Shown in pieces: positions 4,926 to 6,939 of a stretch of 9,671 nucleotides of DNA. The DNA lies in IMG/VR virus record IMGVR_UViG_2526164667_000039; one strand, given 5' to 3'. Position numbers and translations under genes: made by a program. The notes under the pieces are model-generated. The model saw only the letters and a list, made by a program, of their open reading frames with translations, had not been told where the DNA came from and searched no databases. The stretch's first letter is position 1, and each line of letters starts with the position of its first letter. The stretch is from a virus. Its lineage: Duplodnaviria > Heunggongvirae > Uroviricota > Caudoviricetes.

Positions 4926-5654
4926 TCACTCTCCTTTGATGCCAATGTTTACAGACTGGCAAGCCTCTTTGAGCACCCAGTCAACAGCGTCTTTCCATGC
5001 TCCGGTTTCGACTGGCGGATTCTCACGCTTTACCTGCTCATAAAAACGCACCGCTTTAATCAGTCCTTCAGGTACTACTGGCGATGGCTGTTTAGCTTCT
5101 AAATCAGCAATTCTGTCAACTACGGCATCTACTGCATCTGAAAAACCGAACCAGTTACTCCACTCAGGCCTATCCCCGGTTGCTGCAAAATACATATCAG
5201 CTAAAGCAGACTCAGCATGGTCACGCTCGTTAATGAGTTGCTCTTCGCTTTTCTCCAGTTCAGCAATACGCTTCTCTGCGGCCTCTGCCCTGCATTGTTC
5301 CCGTTGGAACATTTTGTGGGTGCGGTCGAGCGCCTCAAGTCTAGCTGCTGATGTTTTCTCTTCTGCTTCAAGCTCAACGCGCAGCTTCCCAACCGTAAGC
5401 GCAATATCCTCGTTCTCCTGGTCGCGGCGTTTGATGTATTGCTGGTTTCTTTCCCGTTCATCCAGTAGTGCCAGCACGGTTTCTGGTCCGGTCAGAAATT
5501 TGAAGGCATTGAGCGCATCAATATCCACACCGTAATCTTTAAGTTCCTGTTCACTTAACAAATCATCATCAGCTGGCAACATTAACAGGCGTTCCATTGC
5601 TGGAATTGCACGTTCCGCCACCTCACGCAGTGCCTGGTAATTAATTTCGCTCAC
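4926..5654 (-). CDS. Ead/Ea22-like prophage protein, paralog 1, 242 aa, GTG start
   Basis: GTG 5654-5652 is preceded by AAAGGAGG with a 6-nt spacer and overlaps the upstream stop (GTGA). The N-terminus VSEINYQALREVAERA parallels paralog 2 (VSKIDYQELREAAEQA). It is acidic with a coiled-coil-like middle region, typical of Ea22-like proteins in the lambdoid early-left region. Confidence 0.7.
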   Translation of the reverse strand: MSEINYQALREVAERAIPAMERLLMLPADDDLLSEQELKDYGVDIDALNAFKFLTGPETVLALLDERERNQQYIKRRDQENEDIALTVGKLRVELEAEEKTSAARLEALDRTHKMFQREQCRAEAAEKRIAELEKSEEQLINERDHAESALADMYFAATGDRPEWSNWFGFSDAVDAVVDRIADLEAKQPSPVVPEGLIKAVRFYEQVKRENPPVETGAWKDAVDWVLKEACQSVNIGIKGE

Positions 5655-5673
5655 TGGTTGCCTCCTTTGCGAA
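5649..5673. repeat. 25-nt junction cassette GCTCACTGGTTGCCTCCTTTGCGAA, copy 1 (identical to 6326-6350)
   Basis: Exact 25/25 identity by direct comparison. On the coding strand it reads TTCGCAAAGGAGGCAACCAGTGAGC, which is the C-terminal codons K-G-G-N-Q of the upstream paralog, its stop, the RBS, and the GTG start plus first Ser codon of the next paralog. Confidence 0.9.
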
Positions 5674-6331
5674 GCTGGGCAGCAAAGTCAACTAACCACT
5701 CAGTCATTTCAACCTTCCCTACCAGGTCTGAACCAGGGTACATACAGCAATCACTCTGCGCCGCTTTGAAATCCTTATACTCATATTCTTGGGCCACCAG
5801 ATTTTTTGCAGCTTCTATAGCAGCATCCACCCCCTGCGCCCGGACTTCAGCCAGGAAAGCATCAGTGGTTGGCGTTTCAGGTATCTGTCTCCTCATCCGT
5901 TCTATTGCATGATTGAACCCGAAGTCTTCCGCGAGAGATACGTCATCCATATTGTCATTGTCATCCTCAATATCCCGTAATTCTGGAATTGCAGACTTTA
6001 TTCCCGCATTCTCCGCTGCCAGCGCCGCGCACTTGGCTTCAAGAGCGGCAACCACTTCCTGATGGTCTTTGTACTTAACGTATGAGCCGGAGATGTCATC
6101 ACCTTCGGTGTTTAGCCATGCGTCATTGCAATTCACTGCGTAGGTTCTGATGCTGATGCTCTCCCGCCCCTGACAGACGCCAGGCCAGTCAATAAAGTAT
6201 CCGCAATGCCTACCCTCAGACGTGCGCGCAGGATAAATGCCGTTATGACCCGGCAAAATATATGCTACCCATTCATCTTGCGTTGCCTGTTCCGCCGCCT
6301 CGCGCAGTTCTTGATAGTCAATCTTGCTCAC
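5651..6331 (-). CDS. Ead/Ea22-like prophage protein, paralog 2, 226 aa from GTG 6331 (the ORF track uses ATG 6364)
   Basis: GTG 6331-6329 has the same RBS and spacer context as paralog 1 and overlaps the paralog 3 stop (GTGA). It shares ALAAENAG and ETPxTDAFLAE(V/I)RA blocks and the C-terminal RKGGNQ with paralog 3. Confidence 0.7.
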   Translation of the reverse strand: MSKIDYQELREAAEQATQDEWVAYILPGHNGIYPARTSEGRHCGYFIDWPGVCQGRESISIRTYAVNCNDAWLNTEGDDISGSYVKYKDHQEVVAALEAKCAALAAENAGIKSAIPELRDIEDDNDNMDDVSLAEDFGFNHAIERMRRQIPETPTTDAFLAEVRAQGVDAAIEAAKNLVAQEYEYKDFKAAQSDCCMYPGSDLVGKVEMTEWLVDFAAQLRKGGNQ

Positions 6332-6350
6332 TGGTTGCCTCCTTTGCGAA
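6326..6350. repeat. 25-nt junction cassette, copy 2
   Basis: Identical to 5649-5673. Confidence 0.9.
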
Positions 6351-6939
6351 TCTGTTCCGCCCATTCTTCTAGGGATTTCTCCGCATATTCACCGGACAGG
6401 CCATCAATCGGGTGTGGTTCATTAGCCAACTCTTCTTTCGCTGACAGAATCATGCGTGTAACGTCGAAAACTTCACGTAAAGACTTATTGATAAATCCGT
6501 GATTGAAAGCAGCAGCAAGACGGCTTGCGGTATAGTTAATCCCCTCGTTGCGTGCTTCCGCACGAATTTCAGCCAGGAAAGCATCGGTGGCTGGAGTTTC
6601 GCTGTGGTGCAGGGCATCGTTGATAATCATTGCAGCAACACCAGCCTGCCCTGCATCCGTGACCGACACATGCTCAAGAGTTACGGCCATTGCGTGTTTC
6701 AGCCCCGCATTCTCCGCCGCCAGCGCCGAAAACTTCTCGTGTGCCAACTTAACAGCTGCTACAGCCTGCTTAATTGACTCAATCGCTTTCTGTTGGTCTT
6801 CGGACAGAGCCAAAATCTTGGCCTCCGCTTCAGCAAATTTACGCACCAGATATTCAGCATTTGTTTCATTCACTTTCAGATCTCGTGGTACACATTTCCC
6901 GCGAAGAAACCCTTCCATTTCGAAAACATTCATGCGCAT
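6328..6939 (-). CDS. Ead/Ea22-like prophage protein, paralog 3, about 203 aa; its native start region is separated from its RBS by the IS100-like insertion
   Basis: The ORF-track start (6975) lies inside the IS (which begins at 6948), so it cannot be native. Candidate native starts are ATG 6939 and ATG 6933. After removing the IS, ATG 6939 sits 8 nt after GGAG, and ATG 6933 overlaps the reconstructed stop of the upstream HD-hydrolase gene (ATGA). The C-terminus ...EEWAEQIRKGGNQ parallels paralog 2. Confidence 0.65.
   Translation of the reverse strand: MRMNVFEMEGFLRGKCVPRDLKVNETNAEYLVRKFAEAEAKILALSEDQQKAIESIKQAVAAVKLAHEKFSALAAENAGLKHAMAVTLEHVSVTDAGQAGVAAMIINDALHHSETPATDAFLAEIRAEARNEGINYTASRLAAAFNHGFINKSLREVFDVTRMILSAKEELANEPHPIDGLSGEYAEKSLEEWAEQIRKGGNQ

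Follow-up and report, generated by a model that had tools for sequence, protein, structure and literature searches.

Why should three neighbouring phage genes be joined, twice over, by the very same 25 nucleotides? The question is raised by IMG/VR virus record IMGVR_UViG_2526164667_000039 (Caudoviricetes), a stretch of 9,671 nt that was analysed at its full length and is called the window hereafter. In it, three genes follow one another on the minus strand: P3 (6328..6939, 203 amino acids, ATG start), P2 (5651..6331, 226 amino acids, GTG start) and P1 (4926..5654, 242 amino acids, GTG start). A preliminary description had seen in them three Ea22-like paralogs, and had suggested tandem duplication with shuffling through short repeats, in an array typical of proteins under diversifying selection. 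We propose, with a probability of about 0.7, that these are three accessory genes built from a shared pool of modules, and that the cassette between them is both a dual-coding junction and a recombination patch.

A dual-coding junction in a three-gene array

The 25-mer GCTCACTGGTTGCCTCCTTTGCGAA is present in two exact copies, at 5649..5673 and 6326..6350, and no other match was found in the window at up to three mismatches; the 25/25 identity first noticed between the two junctions is thereby borne out. None of 200 dinucleotide shuffles of the window contained any match to the 25-mer, which rules out a chance origin of the repeat. On the coding (minus) strand the cassette is TTCGCAAAGGAGGCAACCAGTGAGC, read as TT CGC AAA GGA GGC AAC CAG TGA GC. 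It encodes the peptide (L/I)-R-K-G-G-N-Q followed by the TGA stop, and it carries the Shine-Dalgarno site AAAGGAGG 6 nt 5' of a GTG that overlaps this stop (GTGA); the next codon is AGC, so that the following gene starts V-S. The earlier statement that the same bases specify KGGNQ, the stop, the ribosome-binding site, the overlapping GTG and the V-S start therefore holds on the minus strand. Copy 1 of the cassette (6326..6350) leads from P3 to P2 and copy 2 (5649..5673) from P2 to P1. We place the start of P2 at 6331 because the cassette GTG overlaps the upstream TGA, and this is also the start called by the Prokaryotic Genome Annotation Pipeline (PGAP). In such a junction the codons AAA GGA GGC AAC CAG double as Shine-Dalgarno site and spacer for the GTG overlapping TGA, and ribosomes would initiate on the next gene at the cassette, through translational coupling or re-initiation. 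Around the 25-mer, similarity spans 89 nt at 78% identity, giving two extended homology patches on the minus strand, 5606..5694 around copy 2 and 6283..6371 around copy 1 (pair D1), where similarity breakpoints of relatives gather (see below). Inverted repeats (I2, I3) of 15 nt, 80% complementary, also touch the cassette.

P1 and P2 belong to the Ead/Ea22-like family. Both match PF13935 above its gathering threshold of 27 bits (P1, E 5.6e-30, 105.2 bits; P2, E 9.2e-28, 98 bits) and both are identical to RefSeq proteins (WP_001289977.1 and WP_000034252.1, respectively) that PGAP names 'ead/Ea22-like family protein'. P1 is a lambda-Ea22-type member, in which the N-terminal motif is joined by the coiled-coil segment LLDERERNQQYIKRRDQENEDIALTVGKLRVELE, which is conserved, and by a C-terminal domain (CTD) of a rare type that ends in IKGE. 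Long open reading frames (ORFs) in other frames, of 86-100 amino acids and on both strands, overlap this coiled-coil region at 5201-5535 of the window; the likeliest explanation for them is the composition of this repetitive, helix-encoding sequence. P2, which phrog_368 covers over its full length, is laid out as an N-terminal VSKIDYQELREAAEQ motif, a variable N-domain, a helical middle and a variable CTD ending in RKGGNQ.

P3 does not share the beginning of the other two. It has no Pfam match, PF13935 being absent at E <= 0.1, and the N-terminal Ea22 region and GTG-on-stop start of P1 and P2 are replaced by an ATG and a different head of 35 residues (MRMNVFEMEGF...LVRKF). This is followed by an Ea22-type middle, which carries ALAAENAG and ETPATDAFLAEIRA, and by a CTD that again ends in RKGGNQ. 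The PHROG matches of P3 are phrog_614 (E 7e-91), phrog_14548 and phrog_368, plus phrog_583 on residues 1-47 only, and PHROGs 368, 614 and 492 are common to P2 and P3 over the middle and tail of P3. In its makeup P3 is a chimera, in which a different head is fused to an Ea22-type body; the description of three Ea22-like genes is correct for P1 and P2 and has to be amended for P3.

Structure and family searches add little to this picture. The AlphaFold2 single-sequence models of P2 and P3 are helical and of low confidence (predicted local distance difference test, pLDDT, 46 and 44), too poor for fold searches; the P2 homologues among the 120 listed are all at least 96% identical and so provide no informative alignment for the predictor. 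Matches of P2 and P3 to bZIP and DivIC profiles were sub-threshold only. Searches of PDB sequences with P1, P2 and P3 returned nothing meaningful, the NCBIfam scan of the proteins gave noise only, and PADLOC made no defence assignment, with a marginal DruC match for P1 (E 0.0017, 14.9 bits) and none for P2, P3 or the gene downstream of the array.

Pairwise alignment bears out a relationship for two of the three gene pairs. P1 and P2 are similar within their N-terminal ~17-33 residues only (E 0.001), where both carry the VSxIxYQxLRExAE motif, which had been attributed to all three and is missing from P3. P2 and P3 are 29% identical over the C-terminal 142 residues (E 2e-9), and no similarity was detectable between P1 and P3. 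Along the codons of P2 and P3, nucleotide identity reaches 0.77-0.83 within three short stretches (ALAAENAG, ETPxTDAFLAE and RKGGNQ) and drops between them to 0.2-0.4, the random level. The ALAAENAG block lies at 5988..6034 in P2 and 6689..6735 in P3 (minus strand, 77%, pair D2), and the second block at 5837..5878 in P2, as ETPTTDAFLAEVRA, and at 6559..6600 in P3, as ETPATDAFLAEIRA (minus strand, 86%, pair D3). These shared internal blocks are real, as first described; they are common to P2 and P3 only and stand in the same order in both, that is, they are not shuffled.

Had the genes arisen by local tandem duplication within the lineage of this prophage and then diverged, with the junction repeats as remnants, this would account for adjacent genes of similar length on the same strand, for junctions 677 nt apart and for the 29% identity of P2 and P3 over 142 residues. 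The identity profile does not fit such a history, with 100% over 25 nt, 77-86% in two blocks of 42-47 nt and random similarity between, nor does the lack of any similarity between P1 and P3, or the fact that P1 and P2 have only their N-termini in common. In other phages, moreover, each module has different partners, and two cassettes stand on one contig in only 2 of the 120 contigs listed, one of which (L105) has the same array with a shorter P3. The profile and the promiscuity of the modules largely refute local duplication, which we regard as very improbable.

Reassortment of modules around the junction

The population was surveyed in IMG/VR viral loci chosen for the exact 25-mer, which is carried by at least 120 contigs. 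The 89-nt junction region occurs in 2366 of 5426 complete E. coli genomes, at up to 11 places per genome and in phage-plasmids as well. Among the GTDB species representatives the exact 25-mer had no match and its 20-mer core had four, two in Escherichia and two in metagenome bins that are perhaps mis-binned; the cassette looks essentially Escherichia-restricted among these representatives.

The loci listed hold 128 junction instances, of which 116 had flanks long enough to be clustered on 250 nt per side. They comprise 24 upstream and 24 downstream module clusters that meet in 59 combinations, including 45 four-combination quartets. The 20 nt before the 25-mer (-20..-1) follow the upstream module (adjusted mutual information, AMI, 0.44) rather than the downstream one (0.20), and the 20 nt after it (+1..+20) follow the downstream module (0.45, against 0.21 with the upstream one): linkage flips exactly at the 25-mer. 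The junction is thus an unusually clean and quantifiable conserved mosaic boundary, the switch in linkage mapping to 25 invariant nucleotides. The usual gene after the cassette has an Ea22-type N-terminus (VS[KE]I[DN]YQALRE...), and unrelated genes, such as those starting VSGKRMTNREL... and VSIVQRCRAE..., follow it too.

Similarity breakpoints of relatives against the window cluster at both cassettes, at the ALAAENAG and ETPxTDAFLAE blocks of P2 and P3, at the edges of the P1 coiled-coil segment and at the two ends of the array. One recombinant (L006) joins the N-terminal half of P2 to another tail, with the switch at ALAAENAG. In a library of 1.84 billion representative proteins, 626 clusters (50% identity) are related to P2, and most of these match part of it only (residues 1-57, 60-180, 92-226 or 138-226), as is expected because the family is mosaic. 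A mosaic array with module exchange at short conserved blocks, as initially suggested, is therefore seen across the population. Among the viral loci and the representative proteins, a P2-type gene is also found split after residue 59, where ...GRAST* is followed by MSIRTYAVNCND... with an ATGA overlap, and its N-domain and remainder can, on this reading, exist as separate, translationally coupled genes.

The ratio of nonsynonymous to synonymous substitution rates (dN/dS) was computed per module, as gapless full-length orthologues were too few. It ranges from 0.03 to 0.52 and is mostly at or below 0.3, which indicates purifying selection; the diversity therefore comes from module replacement and not from positive selection on substitutions, and the diversifying selection that had been supposed is not found at the substitution level. 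The duplication step that had been supposed fares no better, P2 and P3 being alike in blocks of 77-83% with random similarity between, and their modules having other neighbours elsewhere. What the preliminary description observed is confirmed, and its interpretation is partly supported.

The same values bear on P3, which might be taken for a non-functional pseudogene or fusion relic, so that the array would consist of two Ea22-like genes and debris. PGAP in RefSeq annotates only the first 45 codons of the gene (10915-11526 in L001), as an incomplete pseudogene, no Pfam model matches it, and in the window its ribosome site has been displaced by an insertion sequence (IS) element. Against this, the ORF is intact over 203 codons, PHROG profiles match it end to end (phrog_614, E 7e-91), and it carries a functional-looking cassette serving P2. 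The exact 203-residue protein is found on 152 contigs and the dN/dS values of its head and CTD are 0.03 and 0.05; because of these two observations we regard P3 as a real gene, and consider it unlikely to be a relic. Its head also occurs elsewhere, joined straight to the P3 CTD in a protein of 116 residues without the middle (L105 and others) and placed on a DUF551 body of 120 residues (L069). The gap in RefSeq, where most of this conserved gene under purifying selection is left unannotated, is likely due to the chimeric head.

We propose that the near-invariant cassette and its ~30-nt conserved flanks act as a homology patch among E. coli phages, because the stretch is nearly invariant among them. 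Whole genes or half-genes would be swapped in register across it, probably by relaxed homologous recombination of the Red/RecT type, and the ALAAENAG and ETPxTDAFLAE blocks would have the same exchange role at the level of domains. Both ingredients have precedents, in the conserved-boundary-sequence model of phage mosaicism (PMC3233612) and in the relaxed recombination of Rad52-like phage recombinases (PMC3945230). As to the proteins, their function is suggested by homology to lambda Ea22 only, according to which they may be oligomeric helical or coiled-coil scaffolds with interchangeable end domains, modulating the choice between lysis and lysogeny.

The main rival, in our view possible but less probable, is that the cassette is kept purely as a translation signal flanked by conserved peptide ends, and that illegitimate recombination at random sites followed by selection creates the boundaries, which is an accepted model for phage mosaicism (PMC3233612); the cassette itself would then be no substrate for recombination. 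Junction variants before Ea22-type starts all keep GGAGG-N6/7-(A/C)AGTGAGC, even after unrelated genes (lambda orf73, Stx2 II), and a Shine-Dalgarno function would likewise explain the exit cassette described in the next section. Yet ~30 nt are conserved on either flank, more than a Shine-Dalgarno site with its start codon would require, and synonymous positions that belong to no signal (CGC, GGC, AAC) are essentially invariant across unrelated modules in this sample, itself ascertained on the 25-mer. Internal coding blocks without any translation signal are breakpoints too. The translation-signal and homology-patch explanations are not mutually exclusive.

Several points nonetheless weigh against the cassette as a recombination patch and against the roles proposed for the genes. 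Being invariant, the 25-mer does not allow crossovers to be located within it, and a break in linkage at a gene boundary is also expected from illegitimate recombination with selection for intact genes. Other Ea22-type starts in different upstream contexts keep GGAGG-N6/7-GTGAGC only, and translation signals alone may explain much of the conservation of the cassette, whose invariance and frequency are inflated by the choice of viral loci for the exact 25-mer. The coupling at the cassette is a prediction from sequence, the coiled-coil architecture of P2 and P3 is only putative because the models mentioned above (pLDDT 46 and 44) are unusable, and no defence, PDB or functional-family match informs function. 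In the window, finally, an IS21-family insertion upstream of P3 probably impairs the transcription that reaches the array from the early-left promoter.

The exit cassette and the '+GE' ending

The array ends in a junction of another type. The exit cassette ATCAAAGGAGAGTGATATG (4919..4940, minus strand) combines I-K-G-E codons that form a Shine-Dalgarno site with TGA, one base and ATG: the end of P1 reads ATC AAA GGA GAG TGA T ATG, where the ribosome site AAGGAG precedes the start codon of the following gene by 6 nt. Of the 69 Ea22-type genes in the loci that end in KGE, 59 have an ORF of 50 residues or more beginning 4 nt past their stop, and these ORFs belong to many different families. Over the 3792 distinct ORFs of at least 60 residues in the loci, KGE is the second commonest C-terminal tripeptide (73 ORFs), encoded as AAAGGAGAG plus TGA in 71 of the 73 and with a start codon no more than 10 nt further on in every case; 18 ORFs with this ending lack the Ea22 motif. 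The array obeys a simple grammar, in which the RKGGNQ cassette usually leads to another Ea22-type N-terminus and the RIKGE cassette (AAAGGAGAG TGA N ATG) leads out of the array, into an unrelated gene.

All Ea22 proteins have been reported to end in K/R-G-E, a feature whose significance was stated to be unknown (Dydecka et al. 2020, PMC7093339), and a ribosome-binding site is mentioned for this '+GE' neither there nor in a 2024 nuclear magnetic resonance paper. The simplest explanation, as we see it, would be that '+GE' is the Shine-Dalgarno site of the next gene (AAAGGAGAG-TGA-N-ATG). In Stx2 phage II the Ea22-like gene ends in RGE, encoded as AGAGGTGAG (AGA GGT GAG) and followed by TAATG, and unrelated neighbouring ORFs also end in KGE. 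In lambda (L123, NC_001416, locus 1040-1075) ea22 keeps ATCAAAGGAGAGTGA, followed by GATCGG without a start codon, and in relatives GATGATCGG... begins a gene; lambda seems to have lost its downstream gene right at the exit cassette. The ending is found on unrelated genes within the operon as well, and an explanation at the level of the nucleic acid should keep structure-function studies from treating '+GE' as a motif with a role in the protein.

A more far-reaching idea, which we put forward tentatively and hold to be less likely than not, is that selection has made the RKGGNQ and RIKGE cassettes of E. coli lambdoid phages into a system of 'plug-and-play' junctions. The invariant linkers would then chiefly serve to let Red/RecT-type recombinases swap accessory genes while translational coupling is kept, and the type of cassette would set the next slot, either an Ea22-type gene or the exit from the array. 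If true, this would give the Susskind-Botstein linker model, debated for so long, a concrete case open to testing, and the C-terminal '+GE' of Ea22 would be a nucleic-acid signal and not a protein motif. The junction could be used for an experimental test of the homologous-linker model against that of illegitimate recombination. The genes themselves are ordinary, P1 and P2 being identical to RefSeq proteins and the locus lying in a decayed prophage.

The surrounding prophage and known systems

Positions 1-6947 of the window are 99.9% identical to a prophage in fimD of E. coli F2_407_2_2, and four complete genomes carry the array at 100% identity, among them that of O55:H7 DEC5D, whose intact prophage has neither of the two IS insertions described below. 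In annotated intact relatives (L001, L002) the gene order is XRE repressor, yfdP, yfdQ, yfdR, P3, P2, P1, then a gene without assigned role, DUF551 and others, and finally xis and int; P3-P2-P1, all on the minus strand, thus lie between the XRE repressor/yfdPQR genes and xis-int. We assign the locus to the distal early-left (exo-xis-equivalent) operon of a defective CPS-53/yfdPQR-type lambdoid E. coli prophage. In an intact relative yfdR is coupled to P3 in a similar way, with GGAG 8 nt before the ATG and overlapping stop and start. Between 4300 and 7100 the minus strand showed nothing resembling a promoter, and terminator-like sites did not exceed chance.

In the window the operon is broken up by two IS elements. 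The first, 1953 bp long and of the IS21 family (6948..8900; istA 7794-8816, istB 7014-7652), is flanked by a 5-bp target duplication, CGTAA (6943-6947 and 8901-8905), and its transposase may resemble that of IS100. Its insertion removes the last 6 codons of yfdR and parts the GGAG ribosome site, now at 8906-8909, from the P3 start at 6939. An IS3-family (IS2-like) element of 1331 bp (3083-4413, target duplication CCGCG at 3078-3082 and 4414-4418) truncates the gene after P1 and sits 2 nt upstream of the start of the DUF551 gene (3076). The first of these insertions strips P3 of its ribosome site, and the array of this defective prophage is probably poorly expressed in the window's strain. Among other traces, FimD, whose gene holds the prophage, retains only its N-terminus at 1-339, and the tyrosine integrase gene has a 1-nt deletion near 1308 relative to F2_407_2_2, which splits its ORF into 387-1259 and 1292-1672.

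The gene downstream of P1 (4414..4921, minus strand), served by the KGE cassette and cut at its 3' end by the IS2-like insertion, matches phrog_9263 and phrog_631 and has no Pfam, NCBIfam or PADLOC match. A D...E-A-K pattern (PDAMGF...CLIEAKCS), noticed by eye and unverified, is reminiscent of PD-(D/E)xK nucleases.

The closest characterized counterpart is lambda Ea22, a tetrameric, pro-lysogenic protein made of an N-terminal region, a coiled coil and a CTD (PMC10834534, PMC7093339), of which the CTD differs between phages (PMC10834534, PMC7093339, PMC8614690). P1 is 49% identical to it over 139 residues, including a 34-residue identical run in the coiled coil, so that the coiled-coil segment of P1 is lambda's, almost unchanged; the GTG start on the upstream stop, the N-terminal MSEINxQALRE and the terminal IKGE (ATCAAAGGAGAGTGA) are further likenesses. 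P2 has the N-terminal motif as well and scores above the threshold of the Pfam family, and the array occupies the position of ea22 in the early-left operon, upstream of xis-int. The differences are that the CTDs are unrelated to lambda's solved CTD and have no PDB sequence match, that P3 is without the family's N-terminal region, and that lambda has a single copy, with no start codon after its KGE cassette, where the window has an array.

Mosaicism is also on record for the exo-xis regions of Stx phages, which show partial duplications and additional N-domains (PMC8614690). The Ea22 homologues of Phi24B, 933W and Stx2 II lie in a mosaic exo-xis region as here, and Stx2 II has the same style of coupling; their modules differ, P1 being 43% identical over 60% of its length. 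The Stx2 II record (L124, 2871-3450) annotates a repeat, 'arrangements c, d, e; region IV', that spans orf73 together with the gene for the Ea22-like protein, which is a prior recognition of modular repeats in this region, and links the latter gene to the 'enterohemolysin-associated protein' of phage C3208. Enterohemolysin-associated determinants (Ehly1/Ehly2, phage genes of E. coli O26) are described as causing release of ClyA and as encoding no haemolysin (Oscarsson 2002, as cited in PMC7093339); the possible link to them comes from the literature and record notes.

Boundary or linker sequences at lambdoid gene junctions have been discussed since the Susskind-Botstein view of modular evolution (Clark et al. 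2001, as cited in PMC3233612), and the cassette behaves as such a linker, being a short conserved gene-boundary sequence across which unrelated modules reassort. It differs from the linkers described in being dual-coding, with a C-terminal peptide, Shine-Dalgarno site, stop and start in the same bases, and in existing in at least two types that would set the order within the array. Neither this dual-coding grammar nor the explanation of '+GE' was found in the literature searched. Since exo-xis mosaicism and boundary sequences are both already known, the locus is a well-resolved further example and not a new kind of system; the grammar of its cassettes and the reading of '+GE' add modestly to what is known.

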